This document shows positions 8,549 to 59,726 of a DNA stretch of 64,000 nt, piece after piece (position 1 is the first letter of the stretch; each line of letters begins with the position of its first letter). The DNA is taken from NCBI GenBank assembly GCA_003483065.1, contig DMWY01000008.1, positions 2,177 to 66,176 on the forward strand, given 5' to 3'. The stretch comes from Candidatus Moraniibacteriota bacterium (GTDB taxonomy: Bacteria > Patescibacteriota > Minisyncoccia > Moranbacterales > UBA2206). Below the pieces are notes generated by a model. The model saw only the letters and a program-made list of their open reading frames with translations. It did no database searches and was not told where the DNA came from. Position numbers and translations under genes: made by a program.

Positions 8549-8689
8549 GACTTCCGCATTTCCCTTCGAATCTATTGTTCGCTGAAATTACTTTAAAATT
8601 CAATTAAGATTATAGATAGAAATTATTGTTTATAAATCCTGCCATTGCACTGGCTACATAAATAGATTCTCAGAAAAATGCGTAAGTCC
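8549..8689 (+). repeat. MITE-like intergenic element copy 1 (141 bp) immediately upstream of rpoD
   Basis: Termini GACTTCCGCATTT ... AAATGCGTAAGTCC are inverted repeats. Internal 9-bp inverted repeat GAATCTATT/AATAGATTC. About 88% identical to the copy at 33650-33790. Confidence 0.6.
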
Positions 8690-10046: not shown

Positions 10047-10173
10047 AAATGATGCTAATCTACGAATACCTGCCTGCCGGCAGGCAGGAATGCTAATCTG
10101 CTAATTGCGAATAATACGAAGTTATCCACAGCCTTGGATTTGACAAAAAAAATAGATGTGCTAAATTAAATTC

Positions 10174-11775: not shown

Positions 11776-11876
11776 TAAACTCCGAAAAAAGCAATGGTGG
11801 ACGACGCTTCGTCCACCATTGCCCCAAACTATTAAAATTGGTAAACTTTAAATATTACTAAAAATAAATCAAACTT

Positions 11877-18991: not shown

Positions 18992-19019
18992 TACTCCAGT
19001 ATTCTAGAATACTGGAGTA
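18992..19019. terminator. Bidirectional terminator between copA (+) and the convergent minus-strand gene
   Basis: TACTCCAGTATTC TAGAATACTGGAGTA is a perfect palindrome flanked by A/T runs. Confidence 0.65.
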
Positions 19020-33649: not shown

Positions 33650-33790
33650 GAACTTCCCCATTTCCCTTCGAATCTATTGTTCACTGAAATTACAAAAAAA
33701 TAAAACTAAGATTATAGATAGAAAATATTGATTGTAATCCTGCTATTGTCCTGGCTACATAAATAGATTCTCATTGAAATGCGTAAGTTC
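33650..33790 (+). repeat. MITE-like element copy 3 (141 bp) immediately upstream of the response regulator at 33812
   Basis: GAACTTCCCCATTT ... AAATGCGTAAGTTC. Collinear with and near-identical to copy 1. Confidence 0.6.
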
Positions 33791-50742: not shown

Positions 50743-51003
50743 ATGAATAACTATTTTATATATTTATTAATAAGTCAGGATAAGCAGAGAACGTATACGG
50801 GATTTACTGATAATATAGAAAATAGGATAAAAAAACATAAAACCAAAGGCGTTAGAACAACAAAAAATTTCGGTGATTTCGGTTATATAATATTAGAAAA
50901 AGTTTTGCCTGACGAAAGACTTGCAAGAGAAGCTGAAAAATATTGGAAGTCTGCCTCTGGTAGGAGAAGGATAAAAGAAATATTAAAAAATAAAGAAGAT
51001 TAA
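50743..51003 (+). CDS. GIY-YIG nuclease family small protein
   Basis: YIYLLISQDKQRTYTGFTDNIENRIKKH matches the GIY...YIG core with a conserved Arg and a C-terminal Glu (EAEKYWK). Confidence 0.8.
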   Translation: MNNYFIYLLISQDKQRTYTGFTDNIENRIKKHKTKGVRTTKNFGDFGYIILEKVLPDERLAREAEKYWKSASGRRRIKEILKNKED

Positions 51004-51007
51004 TTAT

Positions 51008-51085
51008 GCCGCGTTCGTCTAGCCCGGTCAGGACGCCAGGTTTTCATCCTGGAAATCATGGGTTCGAATCCCATACGCGGTACCA
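51008..51085 (+). tRNA. tRNA-Glu (anticodon TTC)
   Basis: GCCGCGTTCGTCTAGCCCGGTCAGGACGCCAGGTTTTCATCCTGGAAATCATGGGTTCGAATCCCATACGCGGTACCA. Cloverleaf with anticodon loop TTTTCAT. CCA encoded. Terminator hairpin at 51092-51117. Confidence 0.8.
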
Positions 51086-51114
51086 AACTTGAAAACAGCC
51101 CTTGATGGCTGTTT

Positions 51115-51143
51115 TTGATTTATCGGAGGAAGGGGGGTAGAAT
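51115..51143 (+). promoter_or_regulatory. Conserved island promoter module, copy 1 (TTGATT, 17 nt, TAGAAT)
   Basis: TTGATT tatcggaggaagggggg TAGAAT GGAAGTGTTCAGT. The G-rich spacer and the first transcribed nucleotides are conserved in copies at 53095 and 53498. A second promoter (TTGCCT, 17 nt, TATAAT at 51195-51223) follows in the same leader. Confidence 0.6.
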
Positions 51144-51249
51144 GGAAGTGTTCAGTGAGGATTGGAAAAAATAAAGTTATCCACAGCTCAAAAGTTGCCT
51201 AAAATATCACAGAGTGATATAATATCATCATAACAAACTAAATAAAGTT

Positions 51250-51582
51250 ATGAAAAACAAATATAGTTCACTCGTCATTTTTGAAGATTTTAGGATTCGT
51301 CGTCACTACGACGAAAAAACGGAAACCTGGTATTTCTCGGTAATTGATATTGTTGCCGCTTTGATAGAGCAAACAGAATATAATAAGGCAAAAACATATT
51401 GGACTACTCTCAAGAATCGTTTGAAAAACGAAAAAAGTGAAGTGGTCACAAAATGTGACCAGTTGAAAATGCTGGCTAAAGATGGAAAAATGAGAGATCG
51501 GGATAATGAAATGTCTCAATCGTTTCCATTTTGGGAACAGTTGAATTTGTCAGCAAAAGAAAAAAGATATCAAAAAATTTAA
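51250..51582 (+). CDS. Bro-N domain protein (phage antirepressor-like N-terminal domain)
   Basis: VIFEDFRIRRHYDEKTETWYFSVIDIVAAL follows the Bro-N pattern (F-x-F...iR...g..wF.a.Dva..L). Confidence 0.55.
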   Translation: MKNKYSSLVIFEDFRIRRHYDEKTETWYFSVIDIVAALIEQTEYNKAKTYWTTLKNRLKNEKSEVVTKCDQLKMLAKDGKMRDRDNEMSQSFPFWEQLNLSAKEKRYQKI

Positions 51583-51590
51583 ATTAAATT

Positions 51591-52412
51591 ATGAAAAAAA
51601 TAAACACACAAGGGCTACAAATATATACTTTTCAAAAGAATGAGGGTGACTATATCTCGCTTACTGATATGGCTAAATATAAAGATCCTGAAAGGACAGA
51701 CTATATCATTCAAAACTGGATGAGAAATTATTCTACGATAGAATTTTTAGGTATTTGGGAGAGAATAAATAACCCTAATTTTAACCCCATCGAATTCGAC
51801 GGGTTTAAAAATAAAGCAGGTTCTAATAGTTTTTCGTTGACACCGACCAGATGGATCAGCGCTGTAAATGCAATTGGAATGATAACAAAATCAGGACGCT
51901 ATGGCGGAGGCACTTTTGCCCATAAAGATATTGCTTTTGAATTCGCAACTTGGATATCAGCCGAGTTTAAACTATATTTAATCAAGGAATTCCAAAGATT
52001 AAAAATAGAGGAAACCGAAAGACTAACTCTTGGTTGGGATGCAAAAAGAGCTTTGACCAAAATCAATTATCGCATACACACCGATTCTATCAAGGAAAAC
52101 ATCGTATTGCCACAGCAACTTTCAAAAAAAGATGCAGACATCACCTATGCCAATGAAGCGGATATTTTAAACAAGGCATTGTTTGGGATGACTGCATTGG
52201 AATGGAGAATAAAAAATAAAGGTAAAGAAGGAAACATTCGAGATTACTCCGATGTATATCAACTTATTTGTCTGGCTAATCTTGAAACATTAAATTCGGA
52301 ATTTATAAAAATGGGAATGAGTCAGAAAGAGAGACTGCTCAAATTAAATGAAATAGCTATTGTTCAAATGAGGTCACTTTTGAACAATCCAACTGTGAAA
52401 AAATTGAATTAA
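51591..52412 (+). CDS. KilA-N domain protein
   Basis: N-terminal YISLTDMAKYKDPERTDYIIQNWMRNYSTIEFLGIWE resembles the KilA-N DNA-binding domain; about 150-aa C-terminal domain unknown. Confidence 0.55.
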   Translation: MKKINTQGLQIYTFQKNEGDYISLTDMAKYKDPERTDYIIQNWMRNYSTIEFLGIWERINNPNFNPIEFDGFKNKAGSNSFSLTPTRWISAVNAIGMITKSGRYGGGTFAHKDIAFEFATWISAEFKLYLIKEFQRLKIEETERLTLGWDAKRALTKINYRIHTDSIKENIVLPQQLSKKDADITYANEADILNKALFGMTALEWRIKNKGKEGNIRDYSDVYQLICLANLETLNSEFIKMGMSQKERLLKLNEIAIVQMRSLLNNPTVKKLN

Positions 52413-52416
52413 ATTT

Positions 52417-52926
52417 ATGGAAAAAGAAAATAATCTTGCCTTTATTGATGGACAAAATCTTTATATGGGAACAAGAAAAATAAAAGAACGACCATGGAAA
52501 GTTAATTTGAAGAAATTTAGAATTTTTTTGAAGGATAAATATCATATTCAGACAGCCTACTATTTTCTTGGATTTGTGAATGAGAAGAATCAAGATCTCT
52601 ATACTGAGATACAAGAAGCGGGATTTGTTTTGATTTTTAGAGAACATAATGCTGCTATGATTGGAAAGAAAAAGGGGAACGTAGATTCTGATATTGTTTT
52701 TTCTATTATGAAAAAACTATATAAAAAAGAGGTTTTTGAAAAGGTAGTATTGGTATCTGGCGATGGGGACTATAAGCAATTAGTCGATTTTCTTATCGAG
52801 GAAAAAAGATTTAAAAAAGCTTTATTTCCAAATAGAAAATTCGCTTCGTCATTATATAAAAAACTTGGGTCAGAGTTCTTTGATTTTTTAGATAGTGAGG
52901 CTATAAAAGCGAAGATTATGAAATAA
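52417..52926 (+). CDS. NYN-domain (PIN-like) putative RNase
   Basis: AFIDGQNLY ... DSDIVFSIM ... VVLVSGDGDYKQLVDFL: the three acidic clusters typical of NYN/LabA nucleases. Confidence 0.7.
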   Translation: MEKENNLAFIDGQNLYMGTRKIKERPWKVNLKKFRIFLKDKYHIQTAYYFLGFVNEKNQDLYTEIQEAGFVLIFREHNAAMIGKKKGNVDSDIVFSIMKKLYKKEVFEKVVLVSGDGDYKQLVDFLIEEKRFKKALFPNRKFASSLYKKLGSEFFDFLDSEAIKAKIMK

Positions 52927-53094
52927 AAAAAGGCTCCTTAGGCACCAACACCTTTCGGATCCTTTTCGTCTTTATGCATAAAATATACACCCAAATCAGC
53001 GAAATGTCAACAGTGCTTGAATAAACAATATTTAAACCTATTCATAATACACTTATTTAGACCAAATATTCCACAAAATTTATGAACATATTTG

Positions 53095-53123
53095 TTGGCT
53101 TATTGGGGGAAAGGGGGTAGAAT
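53095..53123 (+). promoter_or_regulatory. Conserved island promoter module, copy 2
   Basis: TTGGCT tattgggggaaaggggg TAGAAT AGAAGTGTTGA. Confidence 0.55.
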
Positions 53124-53200
53124 AGAAGTGTTGAATAATATCGAGAAAACAGAGAGTTTGCACCATTAATTGCGTAGCATAATTAATTTAAAATAAATTT

Positions 53201-53464
53201 ATGGAAAGCATGGAAAATCAAAATAAAATTTGGAAAGGTACGAATTTTTGGAAGGAAGAGATAAAAAAGGCGGGAGTTCTTGACAAGCTTAAATTTTTTA
53301 GCGACGTTATTACTGAAAATAGAGCGCCTCTTAGTTATGGCGATCCGGTTATCACGGATGTTGTGCTTGATGGAGTTGTATGTGATATATATCACACTGA
53401 CAAAAAACCAAATGACACAGGTTGCAGAATATTTATTCACAAAAAAGAGAGTACTGAAAATTAG
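53201..53464 (+). CDS. Hypothetical small protein
   Basis: 87 aa, own promoter and terminator (53475-53497). Confidence 0.35.
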   Translation: MESMENQNKIWKGTNFWKEEIKKAGVLDKLKFFSDVITENRAPLSYGDPVITDVVLDGVVCDIYHTDKKPNDTGCRIFIHKKESTEN

Positions 53465-53497
53465 AAAAATTCACAAAACCGCTATCACTGGCGGTTT

Positions 53498-53526
53498 TTG
53501 ATTTATTGGAGGAAAGGGGGTAGAAT
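53498..53526 (+). promoter_or_regulatory. Conserved island promoter module, copy 3
   Basis: TTGATT tattggaggaaaggggg TAGAAT GGAAGTGTTCAGT. The -35 is fused to the T-run of the upstream terminator, as in copy 1. Confidence 0.6.
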
Positions 53527-53564
53527 GGAAGTGTTCAGTAATTAGTTAAGTAACATACAAAAAT

Positions 53565-54083
53565 ATGAAAATTGGAATTATTTCTGACGTCCATGACAAT
53601 GGACTAAATCTTCTAAAAGCGATAGATATTTTCAAGAAAAAAGAAGTTGAGATTATAATTCATTGTGGTGATTGGGGTTCGCCTGGAGCAGCTTGGCTTT
53701 TCATGAATAATTGTGACATCAGAACAATTTCGGTTTTTGGTAATAATGACAAGGATATGTATCGTTTTTTTACTTATAAAGAAAAGTATAATTGGGATAA
53801 GTTAGAATATCATGGTGAATTTGCAAATTTAGAATTGGAAGGAAAAAAGATTGCGGTTTATCATGGAAATGTTGGCGAGATAACAGAGGCATTGATGCTT
53901 TCTGGAAAGTGGGAAACAGTAATTTCAGGCCATGATCATGTGTCAAAGATAGAATCTGTAAATGGCGTCTTACATATTAATCCAGGAACAATTAATTGTT
54001 TGAAAGCTGGGAAAATCGAGAATAATTTTACGGTTGCGATTTATGATTTAGGAGAAAATAAGGCAGAGATTATTAAGTTGTAA
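53565..54083 (+). CDS. Small metallophosphoesterase (YfcE/MJ0936-like)
   Basis: MKIGIISDVHDN, GDWGSPG, GNND, VYHGN and GHDHV motifs. Confidence 0.8.
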   Translation: MKIGIISDVHDNGLNLLKAIDIFKKKEVEIIIHCGDWGSPGAAWLFMNNCDIRTISVFGNNDKDMYRFFTYKEKYNWDKLEYHGEFANLELEGKKIAVYHGNVGEITEALMLSGKWETVISGHDHVSKIESVNGVLHINPGTINCLKAGKIENNFTVAIYDLGENKAEIIKL

Positions 54084-54189
54084 AAAAGATAGCGATAGTG
54101 ATTAAAATAAATATAAAAATATGACAACAAGAAAAAGTGAAGAAAAAAATACTTGCCCTGTTAAATAATTTTAAATTTTTTAATAGTCT

Positions 54190-54444
54190 ATGTATTACAC
54201 ATATATTTTAAGGAGTGAAAAGGATAATAAAAATTATGTAGGTTATACTAAAAATTTAAAATTAAGATTTGAGGAGCATCAAAAAGGAAAAGTTGAATCA
54301 ACTAAAGATAGAAGGCCATTGAAATTGATATATTATGAAGCATATCTAAATCAGCAGGATGCGACACATAGAGAAAAATATTTAAAAACATATCATGGTA
54401 AGATGTTTCTAAAAAATCGCCTCAAATCTTATTTAACAGGGTGA
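54190..54444 (+). CDS. GIY-YIG nuclease family small protein (second copy)
   Basis: YYTYILRSEKDNKNYVGYTKNLKLRFEEHQKGK ... the GIY-YIG core with conserved R and E. Confidence 0.8.
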   Translation: MYYTYILRSEKDNKNYVGYTKNLKLRFEEHQKGKVESTKDRRPLKLIYYEAYLNQQDATHREKYLKTYHGKMFLKNRLKSYLTG

Positions 54445-54590
54445 ATAAAATCACGAGAGTAGGAAAAACCAGCTTAGCTGTCACTATTCCAATTGAGATG
54501 TATAAAGAATTAGGCTGGAAAGAAAAACAGAAGGTGGTTGTGAAAAGAGTTAGGGGTGGGGTTGAGATTAAGGATTGGAAAAAGATATAA
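54441..54590 (+). CDS. AbrB/MazE/SpoVT-like small DNA-binding protein (49 aa, GTG start overlapping the upstream stop)
   Basis: VNKITRVGKTSLAVTIPIEMYKELGWKEKQKVVVKRVRGGVEIKDWKKI matches the swapped-hairpin AbrB pattern (vrkiGnSlgvtIP.e....l....g..v). Not in the ORF track because it is under 60 aa. Confidence 0.5.
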   Translation: MNKITRVGKTSLAVTIPIEMYKELGWKEKQKVVVKRVRGGVEIKDWKKI

Positions 54591-55375
54591 GGTTATTTAA
54601 AATGGACTTATCTTTCAATATAAAATTAGCTGACAATTATACTAGCTCATCTCAAAAGATAAGAGTTTTGACTGAGGATTGGGTTGATAGGCAAGTTTAT
54701 TGTCCAAACTGCGGGAAGTTAAGTATCGACAGATATGGAAATAATAAACCAGTTGCAGATTTTTATTGTGAAAATTGTAAGGAAGAATATGAATTGAAAA
54801 GCAAGAAGGATAGTATGGGCAAGAAAATTGTTGATGGCGCGTATAGTAAAATGATTGAAAGGCTGGATAGTGTTAATAATCCGAATTTTTTCTTTTTGAA
54901 TTATAGTTTACAAAGTTACAAGGTAGAAAATTTTGTAGTTATTCCGAAACATTTTTTTGTTCCTGAAATTATTGAAAAAAGAAAACCTCTCTCGGAAGAC
55001 GCAAGACGAGCAGGTTGGGTTGGATGCAATATTTTACTTCAAAATATTCCGCAAAGTGGAAAAATATTTTATGTAAAAGACGGAAATTTTGAAAATAAAG
55101 AAGATGTTTTGAAAAATTGGCAGAGAACACTTTTCTTGAGAGAAGAAAAAGAAATTAGTGCGAAAGGTTGGCTTTTGGATGTTATGAGTTGTATTGAGAG
55201 AATAAAAAAACAAAATTTTTCCCTAGATGAAGTTTATGCTTTTGAAAAAGAATTAAAAATAAAACATCCAGACAATAATTTTATTAAGGATAAGATGCGA
55301 CAAAAATTACAGGTTTTAAGAGATAATAATTACATTGAATTTATTAGTCCTGGTAAGTATAAATTAGTCATTTGA
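54575..55375 (+). CDS. DpnI-like methyl-directed (type IIM) restriction endonuclease
   Basis: Collinear with my recollection of the DpnI family: N-terminal catalytic domain with SSQKIRVLTEDWVDRQVYCPNCG ... PVADFYCENCKEEYELKSKK ... NPNFFFLNY ... RKPLSEDARRAGWVGCNI, and a C-terminal winged-helix-like end LQVLRDNNYIEFISPGKYKL. Needs a database search to confirm. Confidence 0.5.
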   Translation: MEKDIRLFKMDLSFNIKLADNYTSSSQKIRVLTEDWVDRQVYCPNCGKLSIDRYGNNKPVADFYCENCKEEYELKSKKDSMGKKIVDGAYSKMIERLDSVNNPNFFFLNYSLQSYKVENFVVIPKHFFVPEIIEKRKPLSEDARRAGWVGCNILLQNIPQSGKIFYVKDGNFENKEDVLKNWQRTLFLREEKEISAKGWLLDVMSCIERIKKQNFSLDEVYAFEKELKIKHPDNNFIKDKMRQKLQVLRDNNYIEFISPGKYKLVI

Positions 55376-55436
55376 CAATTATCGTGAATCGATCAAAAAT
55401 TGATCAGAAATAAAAATTAATTTTCTGTTCAATTAT

Positions 55437-55871
55437 ATGAAAATTTCAAGAGAGTTGGCGATAAGAATATTAAAATATTTAGATGAGCATAAGAATTTTT
55501 ATTTTCCATTTCTAGTTATGTGCAAAGAGCACGCTGAAGGGGATGATGATTTTATAGAAATTGAACCTGAAGAATGGGAAATGATTCAGGAAGATGATAA
55601 GTATCAAACTTTTGAGTTGTGGGAAAATCTGCAAAATTTAGATGAAGAAACGCTTAAACTTTTGGCGAAAGGATTTTTAGAGAAAATTACCAGTGAATCT
55701 TTGGAGAAAAAAATAGAAAAATTAGCGAAAAAATACAGAAAAGAATGGAAAGTGGAATTGTGGGAAAGTGAAGATATTGAAGAGTTTGGGTATAATGAAT
55801 TTATAGGCGGAAAAGCAGAAGGGTGTGAGGAATGCTTGGAGTCGATAAAAAAATATGGAAAAATAGAGTAA
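55437..55871 (+). CDS. Hypothetical acidic protein
   Basis: 144 aa, Glu/Asp-rich, no motif. Sits between the DpnI-like and KAP NTPase genes. Confidence 0.35.
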   Translation: MKISRELAIRILKYLDEHKNFYFPFLVMCKEHAEGDDDFIEIEPEEWEMIQEDDKYQTFELWENLQNLDEETLKLLAKGFLEKITSESLEKKIEKLAKKYRKEWKVELWESEDIEEFGYNEFIGGKAEGCEECLESIKKYGKIE

Positions 55872-55888
55872 ATTAAAAACGATTTAGT

Positions 55889-57163
55889 ATGGCAGATGGA
55901 TTTGTAAAAAATTATAAATTATTAGAAGAAAACAGCAAGGCTGATGATCTTTTGAATATTGGTGATTTTTGCGAAAAATTTACTAAAAAACTCAATTCAT
56001 TACCTAACTCATCGATTATTGCTTTGGTTGGAAAATTTGGTAGTGGTAAAAGTACAATGTTGCATAAAATAGCAACTAATTATTTGGCCACTTACGTATG
56101 GTTTGAATTTGATGCATGGAAATATCCGGACAGAGAAAATCTCTGGGAGGGATTTATTTTGGATTGTGTTGAAAAGATCAATCCAAATCATTTTTTAAGT
56201 GCGAAAAAAGAGATTGAAGGGAAGTCTAATGATGATAAAAAAACTTTGATTAATGTCTTATCTAAAATACCGGGGTTAGCAGTATTAGAAGGGTTTAATC
56301 ACTTTCTTGAAACATCTCCAGCAAAGCGTGTAAATGATGTACAGAGGATATTTAGAGAACAGCTCGATAATATAAAAAAAGATATTTTCGTTATCATTGA
56401 AGATATAGACAGGTCAGGCGATTCAGGCGCATTCTTTTTAGAGACGCTTAAACAATTTTTAAAATCATCTAATCTCTTAAATAAAGTTGTAATAATCGTT
56501 CCAATAGCTAATGAAAATTATTACAAAAATATCGATTCATATCTAAAGTGTATTGATTATTTTGATTTTTTTGAGCAAAAAAATATAAAATTAGATAAGT
56601 TTGTGGGCGAAGTTATAGATAACTCATTGCTCAGTGGGCAATTAAATAGAAAAGGCGATAATAAATTGATTTGGAGTGGACCAAGTAGAAAAGGGCAAAC
56701 GATTAGTTTTTTAGAAAAGCTTTTTGATGAAATGCCAGAGATGAATATGCGGTTACTTAAGTTAATATTGAGAAAAGCAAATCTGGCCTATAAAAATCAG
56801 ACTTCAGATGGACACGACCCAGATTTTCGGGTTACTTTATGCATAGAAGCATCGAAATATTTCAAAATTAATGGAAAGGAGGAATTGAGTTATTTTGATG
56901 ATTTTAGAGAAAGGGGTGTTATAATCAGAGGTAACATATTTTCCTCATTCTTAATTGCAATGTTAAATAATAAAGATTCTATTGTAGGTATTGATTATAC
57001 CAACGGAAGAGAAATCAAGAGATTATTGACATCGCCCTATGATTTTAAATTTATAAAAAGGGAGGACAATGACAAAATCCAATGGCCATCATATCCCTGG
57101 AGTTATGGCAGATTTAGTGGCGACTCTGGTTTTGGTGTGGCAAGTTTTTATTGCGAATATTAA
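55889..57163 (+). CDS. KAP-family P-loop NTPase
   Basis: IALVGKFGSGKST Walker A immediately followed by FEFDAWKYPD (the KAP F-x-x-W-x-Y motif). Walker B IFVIIEDIDRS. Confidence 0.6.
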   Translation: MADGFVKNYKLLEENSKADDLLNIGDFCEKFTKKLNSLPNSSIIALVGKFGSGKSTMLHKIATNYLATYVWFEFDAWKYPDRENLWEGFILDCVEKINPNHFLSAKKEIEGKSNDDKKTLINVLSKIPGLAVLEGFNHFLETSPAKRVNDVQRIFREQLDNIKKDIFVIIEDIDRSGDSGAFFLETLKQFLKSSNLLNKVVIIVPIANENYYKNIDSYLKCIDYFDFFEQKNIKLDKFVGEVIDNSLLSGQLNRKGDNKLIWSGPSRKGQTISFLEKLFDEMPEMNMRLLKLILRKANLAYKNQTSDGHDPDFRVTLCIEASKYFKINGKEELSYFDDFRERGVIIRGNIFSSFLIAMLNNKDSIVGIDYTNGREIKRLLTSPYDFKFIKREDNDKIQWPSYPWSYGRFSGDSGFGVASFYCEY

Positions 57164-57599
57164 TTTTCTATTGAAGAAATAAAATGTATTAATCTATGGC
57201 ATATAAAGTTATGGAAAAATTTCTAAAGCAAGGATTTAAATTGAAAGAAGATATAATAAAAAAACAACATAACTGCCAAGCAACTGGATTTTGGGTGAAT
57301 CGATCTAAGGAAAGTAATTTTCTTTTGATTATGCACGAACATCTTTTTGTGTTTCAGAAATAATTCAATACATATTCTAATACGTATTAAAATACTTACC
57401 TAAATTAGTTACTTACTTTAAGTGTAAGATTAGCGCCGGAGCGCTGTAGTATCTGTATAAATAAGTGGGTGAAGTTATGAACAAACTAACCGCCGAAGAA
57501 AAAAGAGTTATTTTGGAAAAGGTAATTTAAAATTAACAAGAAAAATATGTTTATAAAACTCTATCTCATTGCCTTGCCGGTTTTTTGCTTCAGTTTTAA

Positions 57600-58130
57600 T
57601 TGTTACATAATACAATGAAAAAAATTGAAGTTGTCGTTAATGACAAAATGCAAAAAAACTATGCTTATACTATCACAGAAAAATCTGGGGAAAATTTTGC
57701 ACCCGAATTTAAGCCGGAGTTGACCCCCAAAGAAATGCTTAAGCTTGGAATTTTTGGAGGGAGATATATACGAGATTGCAAAAAAGAATTTCCCAAAGAT
57801 TGGTTTTCAAAGGCTAAACTTTTTCCGGATGGTCTCTCTGGGCATGACAAAAATTTAAATTATTTCAAAGTAGATGCATCTCAACCCCTTTCGGTTTGGA
57901 GAAAAAAAGGATGGATTCACTCCGATGATCCAAGAGGCTGGTTTCAATGGTATTGTCGATATTATATAGGCAGAAGGCATGAGGATGATGCTCGTCAAAT
58001 TCGTCGCTGGAAAGCTTTTAGGCGTCACGTTACCCAAATTCAAAAAAATTGTTGGCAAGGAGATTTGAATTGTCGCTCAAGACAGCACCAAGCTGTGCTC
58101 CACTGGGCCTATGATAGTAGAAAATTGTAA
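57600..58130 (+). CDS. Hypothetical protein with Arg/His/Trp-rich C-terminus
   Basis: GIFGGRYIRD segment. Two Rx6H arrangements (RYYIGRRH, RWKAFRRH). No confident family assignment. Confidence 0.35.
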   Translation: MLHNTMKKIEVVVNDKMQKNYAYTITEKSGENFAPEFKPELTPKEMLKLGIFGGRYIRDCKKEFPKDWFSKAKLFPDGLSGHDKNLNYFKVDASQPLSVWRKKGWIHSDDPRGWFQWYCRYYIGRRHEDDARQIRRWKAFRRHVTQIQKNCWQGDLNCRSRQHQAVLHWAYDSRKL

Positions 58131-58278
58131 ATATAATTTTTGTTCAGTAACCCGCCTCTCATCGGCGGAAAGGCATACTAAGTAACACCAACAGCCTTCA
58201 GGGGCTGTTTTTCTGTGGGGGATTGACGAGTGAAATAGAGATGATATAATATCACCATAACAAATAAATATTAAAAAT

Positions 58279-59068
58279 ATGAACAATAATGTTTTTGAAG
58301 AAATAAAAAGAATTAATGAATATCAAAGTGAATATTGGTCGTCTCGTGATTTGGCTAAAGTGTTGGGTTATTCCAGCTACGATAAATTCCTAAATGTTAT
58401 TAATAAAGCCAAAGAAGCATGTGAAAATAGTGGTCAAGTTATCCACAACCATTTTTCCCATATGGACGAAATGGTTGAAATAGGTTCAGGCGCAAAAAGA
58501 GCAATTGATACAGTATATTTATCTCGTTATGCGTGTTATTTGATTATCCAAAATTCCGATCCATCCAAAGAAGTGGTTGCTTTGGGTCAAACATATTTCG
58601 CGATTCAAACTCGAAGACAAGAAAAATCAGATCAGTTAATAGAGGATAATAAAAGATTACATTTGCGTAGTGAAATAAAAACTCACAACACATCCTTAGC
58701 TGAAGCCGCGGAAAATGCGGGAGTTAGCAATTATGGAAAATTTCAAAATTATGGATATAGGGGATTGTATGGGGGGGCTGGACGCAAATGATATTCACAA
58801 AAAGAAAGGTTTAAAAAAATCTCAAAAAATACTTGATCATATGGGGAGCGAAGAATTGGCAGCTAACTTATTTCGCGCCACTCAAGCTGATGCAAAATTA
58901 CGCAGAGAAAAAATCCAAGGCGAAATTAACGCAAATTTGACGCATTTTCATGTCGGGCAAAAAGTTCGGCGTACAATTGAAGAATTGGGCGGAACAATGC
59001 CTGAAGAACTACCATCAGCAGATGGAATATCTGAGGCGAGGACTAGAATAAAAAAGATTAAAAATTAA
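58279..59068 (+). pseudogene. dinD: DinD-like (DNA-damage-inducible protein D / Bro-N family) gene disrupted by a frameshift at a G7 tract
   Basis: N-terminal frame (58279-58791) FEEIKRINEYQSEYWSSRDLAKVLGY ... GDPSKEVVALGQTYFAIQTR and C-terminal frame (58715-59068) ...GSEELAANLFRATQADAKLRREKIQGE... are two halves of one DinD-like protein. Deleting one G in GGGGGGG (58771-58777) joins them. Confidence 0.65.
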
Positions 59069-59114
59069 AAATTCTAAACCCATCAAATTCGACGGGTTTA
59101 ATAAAAATAATTTT

Positions 59115-59726
59115 TCATTCCTCCCACTCCAGCATTTTTCCAATTCTTGATTCCATGCGGTCGGCTTTTTGGAGATACATTATTTGCTTGCGATTCAAAA
59201 TAGGGGAGTGCTTAACGTCGGCCAGATATTCGGGGATATAGAAGATTTCTTCCTCGGTGGTCATCCAATCAAGATGATCAAAACGTTTCAAATTTATCGG
59301 AGCGGAAAAACTGCGCAGACTTTTTCGACCAGTAGTGTCAAAATATTCATGGAAATAGCTCATGGCCAATTCGCGAATGGAAGAATAGACCGGTTCGCGA
59401 TAGCGTAGAAAAACATGATTAGTTTTGGAAATGGCACCCCATTTGCCATATTTTTTGAAAACCGCCACGACATGATCAAAATCAGTTTTACTGGCCATAA
59501 GATCCAAAAGTAGGGGAGGTTGGCCATTGATGCGAAGAGCCAGCGCGGCCAGTGTGGCGCCTTCGATGCAGTGACAAACTTTTTTGTCGAGAACTGTCAT
59601 CGGCGAAAAACAAGTGTCGCCAGATTTTTCTAAATTCATTGGCATTGAATTCAAAAAAAGCTGAATCTTTTTGGGATCATCGAGGGCTTTCAAGATTTTC
59701 AATTTTTCTTTAGGAATGCCAAACAT
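59115..59726 (-). CDS. Hypothetical protein with possible Cys/His/Asp catalytic residues
   Basis: CHCIEGATLAALALR ... FDHVVAV pattern; family unassigned. Confidence 0.3.
   Translation of the reverse strand: MFGIPKEKLKILKALDDPKKIQLFLNSMPMNLEKSGDTCFSPMTVLDKKVCHCIEGATLAALALRINGQPPLLLDLMASKTDFDHVVAVFKKYGKWGAISKTNHVFLRYREPVYSSIRELAMSYFHEYFDTTGRKSLRSFSAPINLKRFDHLDWMTTEEEIFYIPEYLADVKHSPILNRKQIMYLQKADRMESRIGKMLEWEE

Follow-up and report, generated by a model that had tools for sequence, protein, structure and literature searches.

A conserved palindrome in the coding sequence of KilA-N family genes and a stand-alone copy beside a dinD-like gene in a Candidatus Moraniibacteriota genome

The DNA analysed here is a stretch of 64,000 nt (hereafter the window) from Candidatus Moraniibacteriota bacterium, a groundwater bacterium of the candidate phyla radiation (CPR) (contig DMWY01000008.1, positions 2,177 to 66,176, forward strand), in which a short palindromic sequence occurs once inside a KilA-N family gene (copy P1) and once directly after a dinD-like gene (copy P2). 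The KilA-N gene (51591-52412, plus strand) is intact, encodes 273 aa with the Pfam domain PF04383 (E=1.6e-19), and belongs to a family with homologues in at least 8000 clusters at E<=1e-10. The dinD-like gene, of the Bro-N type according to Pfam (58279-59068, plus strand), carries a frameshift that leaves the open reading frames (ORFs) 58279-58791 and 58715-59068. These ORFs of 170 and 117 aa, overlapping at 58715-58791, are found in every assembly of the species, while the relative L309 (comparison loci are designated by L numbers) has an intact dinD of 264 aa; the dinD of this species is probably a pseudogene. A convergent gene of 203 aa (59115-59726, minus strand) follows; it is the last gene of an M23-peptidase/ArsP operon, the transcript of which P2 would terminate. 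The gap between these two convergent genes is 46 nt long and holds P2, which starts 4 nt past the dinD-like stop and comes to within 12 nt of the 203-aa gene's stop. The genes between P1 and P2 encode NYN, phosphoesterase, GIY-YIG, AbrB/MazE-like, DpnI-like and KAP NTPase proteins, together with other small genes. No integrase, recombinase or transposase was found between 41.6 and 62.4 kb (precomputed Pfam annotation of all called genes, and Pfam scan of 10 ORFs of the supposed island).

The first copy of the repeat, CCCATCGAATTCGACGGGTTTAA (51786-51808, plus strand), lies inside the KilA-N ORF and encodes PIEFDGFK; the second, CCCATCAAATTCGACGGGTTTAA (59079-59101), starts 11 nt past the dinD-like stop codon (59066-59068). 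An earlier note on this DNA had described a 24-bp repeat with 23 matches: the repeat is real, the best alignment being 22 of 23 positions with a G to A change as sole mismatch, and the first copy had been placed 1-2 nt off. The statement that the match is not due to chance was borne out, as no dinucleotide shuffle of the window gave any match to the repeat pattern (0/100) and a 23-mer pair with at most one mismatch appeared in 3 of 60 order-2 Markov simulations; a chance origin was ruled out on these grounds. Looser similarity between the copies extends over 53 nt (77%) and consists mainly of AT-rich flank.

Both copies are near-palindromes centred on GAA|TTC, and they are the only GAATTC-centred palindromes in the 64 kb (0 in shuffles). 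P1 is the 32-bp palindrome TTTTAACCCCATCGAA|TTCGACGGGTTTAAAA (51779-51810), with 14 of 16 self-pairs, and occupies codons 63-74 of the KilA-N gene. P2, TTCTAAACCCATCAAA|TTCGACGGGTTTAATA (59072-59103), has 12 of 16 self-pairs, and the two are identical at 28 of 32 positions across the full palindromes. The sequence does not look like a common genome-wide terminator motif, which was the circumstance under which an island boundary would have lost its meaning: the window holds just 2 copies, and the variant seen in P2 was found in 6 metagenome contigs, all from other organisms.

P1 belongs to a type that is shared by the KilA-N family. In codons 63-74 of the family, a 32-bp palindrome TTTTAA-N5-TCGAATTCGA-N5'-TTAAAA is found, with a conserved centre TCGAATTCGA, 5 variable yet complementary positions per arm, and conserved outer TTTTAA/TTAAAA. 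The pattern CCCATCRAATTCGAYGGGTTT was searched in one genome per species (596 Gb, in which about one chance match is expected by our own arithmetic). More than 119 stretches were obtained among the matches listed, nearly all in genomes of different species of Bacteria and Archaea, from Methanoregula and Woesearchaeota to Bacteroidota, Pseudomonadota and CPR; among the matches listed, 48 sit in intact KilA-N homologues, at the same codons. In Escherichia coli, the palindrome was not found in 5,426 genomes.

Because the CCCATCRAATTCGAYGGGTTT sample is biased to an exact sequence, 80 homologues were taken by protein similarity instead (49-61% identity). Across these homologues the peptide is diverse (PIEFDG, LVEFDQ, GIEFDA, VVEFDH, SPEFEG, LLEFEE, CLEFEA, WGEFAL) and the DNA is still palindromic: the flanking codons are mutually reverse-complementary (CCC/GGG, CTG/CAG, GGC/GCC, GTG/CAC, TCC/GGA, CTC/GAG, TGC/GCA), which corresponds to paired amino-acid changes P..G, L..Q, V..H, G..A, C..A and S..G. 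Going outwards from the centre, each of the 16 positions of an arm shows 65-100% complementarity, which falls to background from position 17. Among 39 distinct segments from homologues, pairing holds in 93.2% of cells versus 76.5% in shuffles (0/500), both sides change in 8 of 14 pairs, and compensatory cells number 90 versus 28.6 (0/500 shuffles). When the partner was slid by 1-3 columns, only 28-62% pairing was obtained. Resampling of synonymous codons according to the gene's own usage, with the protein kept, gave 9.6 of 18 pairs versus 14.6 observed (median p 0.001), and the codon of Glu-68 is GAA in 33 sequences and GAG in none.

A cause at the protein level, such as cross-strand contacts, was considered and rejected. 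The AlphaFold model (predicted local distance difference test, pLDDT, 76) shows a loop for residues 61-65 and a helix for 66-75, with no beta-hairpin, so that protein contacts do not explain the pairing, and synonymous sites follow the palindrome. Since the arms vary and stay complementary through paired residues and synonymous codons, selection acts on the nucleic acid. A search for solved structures gave none. When N-terminal and C-terminal parts were compared for phylogenetic mosaicism at the palindrome, the differences were modest (identity 0.55 vs 0.75).

Hairpins of the same kind were found in two other gene families and probably in a third. In the dinD-like gene, a coding hairpin (58448-58475, plus strand; codons ~57-66, NHFSHMDEMV) has 9 Watson-Crick pairs and one G.U pair out of 12. 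At the corresponding site of DinD genes (D-H-F-x4-K-M-V; loci L205-L232), 88% of cells are paired in 16 sequences versus 72% in shuffles (0/500). Both partners have changed in 9 of 12 pairs, with a maximum of 51% in slid controls, and the compensatory codon pairs are H/M, F/K, P/R, Q/L and C/T. In RhuM genes (loci L029, L037, L066, L092, L116, L122 and L250-L300), a hairpin of 11-12 bp stands just before the DGK motif and is 95.5% paired versus 71% (20 sequences), with both sides changed in 9 of 11 pairs and slid controls of at most 43%. The fourth hairpin, TGGTCACA-AAA-TGTGACCA (51443-51461, plus strand), lies inside a truncated Bro-N ORF of 110 aa (51250-51582). Bro-N genes of this type read GTGACA-N3-TGTCAC, and one of the 4 homologues compared has a fully different, complementary stem; the Bro-N hairpin probably covaries like those of DinD and RhuM. 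In the same 4 homologues, the similarity of the truncated ORF to full-length genes ends about 40 nt past the hairpin, as in KilA-N fragments.

All four hairpins are located 170-240 nt from the start codon. Compensatory change beyond the protein sequence, the mark of a conserved structured cis-element within coding sequence, was thus found for KilA-N, DinD and RhuM. The same scan of HsdM, HsdS, HsdR, integrases, serine recombinase, S24 repressor and DUF1016 gave nothing comparable (best mean pairing 0.40-0.57), one small integrase family reaching a mean pairing of 0.68 with little variation. No Rfam 15 covariance model matched at P1, P2 or the DinD, RhuM or Bro-N hairpins, the only hits being tRNA and sub-threshold chance matches. 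One of the sub-threshold matches is to a group I intron (51677-51867, minus strand, spanning P1; 18.7 bits, E 0.36) and is probably a chance match caused by the hairpin. Genes of the KilA-N, DinD, RhuM and Bro-N families are known to lodge between type I restriction-modification (R-M) genes (PMC9881135). Literature searches on KilA-N plus palindrome, on RhuM/DinD/type I R-M and on the sequence itself returned no description beyond this known lodging, and the coding palindrome of the KilA-N family is thus apparently undescribed. It is also possible, at somewhat less than even odds, that the antirepressor-like genes found in defence islands and prophages (KilA-N, DinD, RhuM and probably Bro-N) share an undescribed class of cis-acting hairpin, of which the KilA-N form also exists as a free unit of ~30 nt that can be cleanly gained or lost. 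Members of such a class could serve in regulation, in recombination or mobility, or could be mini-palindromes that copy themselves.

The second copy, P2, differs from P1 in that it can be read as a terminator. On the minus strand, a terminator-like hairpin (59060-59101) has 12 pairs including 2 G.U, a loop AAUU and a U-rich tail AAUUUUUAAU; the stop of the 203-aa gene lies 14 nt upstream of it, and no other site between 50.5 and 60.5 kb ranks higher as a terminator. The two departures of P2 from a perfect palindrome are G.U pairs on the minus strand, on which the RNA folds with -14.3 kcal/mol (z -4.0) versus -9.7 on the plus strand. Stem-loop, U-rich tract and position past a stop codon are thus combined on the minus strand of P2 and not on its plus strand; P1 has no U tract, stands in the middle of an ORF and does not qualify on either strand. 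The earlier remark that the second copy looks like a terminator hairpin therefore holds for the minus strand. Read on this same strand, P2 codes for K-P-V-E-F-D-G-F-R, and in 4 of the 6 metagenome contigs the P2 variant is the antisense of PVEFDG codons inside KilA-N homologues.

In L309 (~89% identical here), an intact DinD gene abuts the 203-aa gene, and both flanks align up to a clean 30-nt gap that corresponds to 59074-59103. P2 is therefore an indel on its own and forms a discrete unit within the dinD segment, at its 3' end; no target duplication is visible at P2. Two simple origins of P2 were rejected. It is not an intrinsic part of dinD cassettes, the palindrome being present at 0 of 28 unbiased DinD loci and L309 having dinD without P2; nor is it an ancestral terminator of the 203-aa operon, given that the relatives L308, L309 and L311 are without it.

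P2 could also be all that is left of a further KilA-N gene, once located between dinD and the 203-aa gene and decayed in place, with the hairpin spared as a terminator. Partial KilA-N genes that keep the palindrome are indeed common: of 95 palindromes at a sufficient distance from stretch ends, intact genes hold 36 and partial genes 28, and the other 31 lack any detectable KilA-N flank; 7 of the partial genes break off no more than 9 codons from the palindrome, and the majority do so within 35 codons. CPR genomes, this one included, are compact, L309 shows that in this lineage a KilA-N gene was deleted down to a tiny remnant, and the coding capacity of the minus strand of P2, with its variant inside genes in 4 of 6 contigs, would fit such an origin. 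However, both flanks of P2 align with L309 up to the palindrome with no other remnant, and a KilA-N profile hidden Markov model run on the window detected nothing besides the gene, giving only the bare motif at P2 (E=0.14 and 0.57). Two deletions, each stopping within ~2 nt of the palindrome edges, would have been needed, which makes this origin distinctly unlikely.

The earlier note had proposed that the two copies are attL/attR-like attachment (att) sites of an island of about 7.3 kb, or sites for cassette exchange, the interval having been inserted or being excisable by site-specific recombination. This was not borne out at the locus. P1 does not interrupt the KilA-N gene, which is typical of its family in sequence to either side of the palindrome, and no C-terminal remnant of the gene follows P2. 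No recombinase was found within or next to the bracketed segment (~10 kb upstream and 3 kb downstream of the interval). An excised or empty form was not seen among the aligned contigs of the species that reach the sites, all of which keep the same P1 and P2, and an empty site with a single repeat was not found in L308, L309, L003 or L237.

The indels of these close relatives (L308, L309) and strain variants (L003, L237) are bounded elsewhere: at 54442 (L003), 52436/54109 (L237), 51490-53465 and 54584-57340 (L309), and 58147-59103 (L308). The segment 58147-59103, which comprises terminator, promoter, dinD and P2, is absent from L308, and the junction falls in the 9-nt direct repeat ATAATTTTT (58133-58141 and 59107-59115). 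In L309, the tail of the Bro-N fragment ORF, the KilA-N gene with P1, the NYN gene and an 87-aa ORF (51490-53465) are missing; a 33-nt remnant of the junction between KilA-N stop and NYN start is retained, and the difference is therefore a deletion in L309. Some further observations concern this mosaic. Small GIY-YIG genes (54190-54444 and 50743-51003) mark strain breakpoints: L003 diverges exactly at the GIY-YIG stop codon (54442), in L237 AntA replaces NYN through the phosphoesterase, and L309 is without the first GIY-YIG gene. The upstream end of L005 is divergent and GC-rich and is probably an assembly chimera.

Close homologues of the KilA-N gene bear on the same question. Compared with 51590-52419 of the window, their DNA homology spans exactly the ATG to the stop; the palindrome is therefore not the edge of a mobile unit, and the ORF moves as a precise unit. 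The operon context of the close homologues (88-95% protein identity) is SNF2 - KilA-N - methylase. Homologues with 87-95% protein identity (L248, L244, L247) were observed in unrelated contexts, either a SNF2 - methylase - helicase operon or a gap between pilin-like and release-factor genes.

Other genomes provide the arguments in favour of att sites. Palindromes flank defence genes on both sides in L085 (DinD), in L107 (a P-loop NTPase of 1453 aa, STAND/NLR-like as judged from its sequence) and likewise in L112. N-terminal KilA-N fragments that end at or soon past the palindrome are followed by a new complete gene in L123, L053, L111 and L203, stacked palindromes occur at a spacing of 24-25 nt, arrays of them being present in L053, L064, L062 and L080, and the outer boxes resemble integron R boxes. 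A single hybrid palindrome was observed, on the Acinetobacter nosocomialis plasmid CP033552.1 (L313, 3003-3034), with non-complementary left arm AAACCCCTC and right arm GATACCTTT; it stands 2 nt past the 3' end of a tRNA-Arg, as a recombinant att site would sit. Hybrids are rare, however (1 of 54 distinct sites), and among clustered neighbour ORFs no enrichment of recombinases was found beside orphan copies, integrases being present only in prophage contexts of intact genes. The palindrome does mark junctions of rearranged or stacked gene fragments in other genomes, and to that extent the idea of a site for rearrangement is borne out. The 7.3 kb between the copies are not supported as an island, and their insertion or excision through the palindromes was considered very unlikely.

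Orphan copies raise another possibility, that the palindrome is an autonomous mobile or copyable mini-element of ~30 nt, which entered a KilA-N ancestor in frame or was spawned from KilA-N, P2 being a new insertion. The clean 30-nt presence/absence difference at P2 would agree with this, as would the orphans without flanks beside housekeeping genes (hemY/ROK, RNase T, csy4) and in intergenic regions of plasmids without annotated KilA-N gene. Orphans also stand 28-32 nt upstream of complete KilA-N genes with a different palindrome type (L054, L064, L066, L101, L091). The segment coded by the palindrome belongs to a family-specific stretch of the KilA-N domain (125 residues versus 96 profile positions), and a precedent exists in the Rickettsia palindromic elements (RPE) and the PARCELs found inside ORFs (PMC2996958). 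Against it, copy number is low (1-3 per 8-kb locus elsewhere, 2 in the 64-kb window, none in the E. coli genomes searched), no target duplication accompanies P2, an enzyme is neither known nor linked, and the indel could equally be a precise loss; a mini-element of this kind was judged highly improbable. Two side observations were made on these loci. In L020 (5790-5890), a structured insertion of ~105 nt without Rfam match directly follows the palindrome of an otherwise intact KilA-N gene. The palindrome lies 25-160 nt from the end of the stretch in L060, L065, L080, L035 and L097, which is a contig end for at least L065, and assemblies may break at the palindrome.

Taken as a whole, P1 is best read as the gene's copy of a conserved nucleic-acid element and P2 as a stand-alone copy, the pair not delimiting a mobile element; a probability of about 65% was assigned to this reading. 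P2 would descend from a KilA-N-type palindrome, either of the lineage of P1 or of a lost allele, and would have been retained as a hairpin useful for termination or because it maintains itself. Transcribed from the minus strand, it would act as a Rho-independent terminator for the 203-aa/ArsP/M23 operon. Within genes, the palindrome would act as an intrastrand hairpin in RNA or single-stranded DNA: a centre and base that are conserved, together with a middle that covaries freely, are the signature of an intrastrand hairpin read by its shape plus a few fixed bases. As for its role there, an action at the transcript level (processing, stability, expression control, or binding by the encoded protein) is a fair guess that falls short of an even chance. 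A recombination or mobility site in single-stranded or cruciform DNA is unlikely though conceivable, self-perpetuation by quasi-palindrome template switching without function is rather more doubtful, and a double-stranded DNA site for a dimeric protein is improbable.

Several points weigh against this reading. The shuffle control ignores phylogeny, though the homologue sample spans at least 10 unrelated stem types. Mismatches are G.T in 31 cases versus A.C in 15, an excess that is driven by Lys/Arg codons and decides neither between RNA and DNA nor between strands, and the RNA of P1 is more stably folded in the antisense (-19.4) than in the sense orientation (-10.1). L309 lost its KilA-N gene by deletion and may have lost P2 as well. 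The terminator role of P2 is predicted, and relatives without P2 have a gap of 9-13 nt between the convergent genes. Finally, 4 of the 32 positions differ between the two copies, and the outer arms of P2 are like those of a widespread 'TTCTAAA' type; P2 need therefore not descend from P1 itself.

Other features of the window are as follows. A promoter-like 23-mer, TGATATAATATCAYCATAACAAA (51215-51237, plus strand), upstream of the Bro-N fragment, is repeated with 22 of 23 matches at 58242-58264, upstream of dinD, and makes both regions look collinear. Within it, an extended -10 promoter overlaps the 13-nt palindrome TGATAT-A-ATATCA, which may serve both regions as an operator. A segmental duplication between 51.2-51.8 kb and 58.2-59.1 kb was rejected, the collinear matches being just two short ones (this 23-mer and the palindrome) with unrelated genes in between. 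A 65-nt module made of a terminator hairpin and a TTGATT-17-TAGAAT promoter is present three times (51092-51156, directly after a tRNA-Glu at 51008-51085; 53072-53136; 53475-53539), its copies falling at cassette boundaries relative to L309. Other near-perfect palindromes of 26 nt, unrelated in sequence, such as ACTCCAGTATTCTAGAATACTGGAGT, are located at 10066-10091, 11794-11819 and 18993-19018. A direct repeat of ~125 nt, with copies ~25 kb apart (8550-8673 and 33652-33774), consists of three blocks of 24-42 nt with 1-2 mismatches each.

The analysis removes a tempting but wrong island boundary and replaces it with the real mosaic of the defence cluster, mapped against relatives. For annotators, short 'direct repeats' with such motifs are not att sites. 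In a family of thousands, a palindrome forces complementary codon pairs (Pro/Gly, Leu/Gln, Val/His, Cys/Ala), so that nucleic-acid structure overrides protein sequence. The same kind of hairpin in DinD, RhuM and seemingly Bro-N would point to a step that these genes share in their expression, movement or sensing, in families that lodge inside type I R-M, CRISPR and prophage lysogeny modules. If this is true, a cis-acting element writes itself into protein sequence and dictates pairs of amino acids across Bacteria and Archaea. Culturable carriers are available in Xenorhabdus, Photorhabdus, Pasteurella and Parabacteroides plasmids.

Comparison with known systems gives partial likenesses. The minus strand of P2 is like a Rho-independent terminator in its 12-pair stem, 4-nt loop, U-rich tail and position between convergent genes; P1, in the middle of an ORF and without U tract on either strand, is not. 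Unlike terminators, the stem sequence is common to a gene family across phyla, and the outer TTTTAA/TTAAAA boxes pair rather than form a 3' U tail. The attC sites of integrons are defined by structure, with covarying palindromic arms and conserved outer R boxes (RYYYAAC/GTTRRRY), and stand at the 3' end of gene cassettes. Some KilA-N family members, which read TTTAAC...GTTAAA, are like them. However, the boxes of P1 (TTTTAAC...TTTAAAA) and P2 (TTCTAAA...TTTAATA) do not conform, AAC...GTT being found in a minority only, and the length is 32 nt versus 57-141 nt, without extrahelical bases, unpaired spacer or bulges. Being perfectly symmetric, the palindrome has no strand polarity; its main copy is part of an ORF, and an integrase (IntI) was not found nearby. 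With regard to dif/Xer sites, which have an 11-6-11 architecture of XerC and XerD arms, the KilA-N site can be read as arms of 9-12 nt around a 6-nt GAATTC spacer; the arms do not look like those of dif, and the same GAATTC centre is present in Bacteria and Archaea.

The iterons of lambda-type origins are inverted-repeat sites within the O gene, whose product binds DNA, and they fall in a part of the protein that can bear the constraint. The O protein recognises several such sequence-specific sites in double-stranded DNA, whereas the KilA-N gene has a single site with freely varying, compensated arms and putative intrastrand pairing. Template switching at quasi-palindromes, known from E. coli genetics, converts a change in one arm to its complement in the other and can produce covariation without selection. 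It would also keep orphans perfect without selection; being a mutational process, it leaves the sharp family-wide boundaries and the position at 170-240 nt in four families unexplained. As to repeats of the repetitive extragenic palindrome (REP) or miniature inverted-repeat transposable element (MITE) type, the copies seen in the window and the loci are few (2 in 64 kb, 1-3 per 8 kb).

The hr sequences of baculoviruses contain a 30-bp imperfect palindrome with an EcoRI core (PMC2834656). P1 may be likened to them in its length of ~30 bp, GAATTC core and AT-rich ends, and they too occur in genomes rich in bro (Bro-N) genes; unlike P1, they form non-coding tandem arrays that are bound by IE-1 and serve as enhancers or origins in eukaryotic viruses. 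RPE and PARCELs are dyad-symmetric DNA sequences that are translated in proteins (PMC2996958), and the likeness lies in the translated dyad symmetry, the horizontal spread and the constraint on the peptide. RPE are 100-150 bp long and inserted in many unrelated genes, and PARCELs are tandem repeats of 25 residues in surface proteins, whereas the palindrome described here is a single 32-bp unit whose place within one gene family does not change; comparable hairpins exist in DinD, RhuM and Bro-N genes, and orphans are rare.

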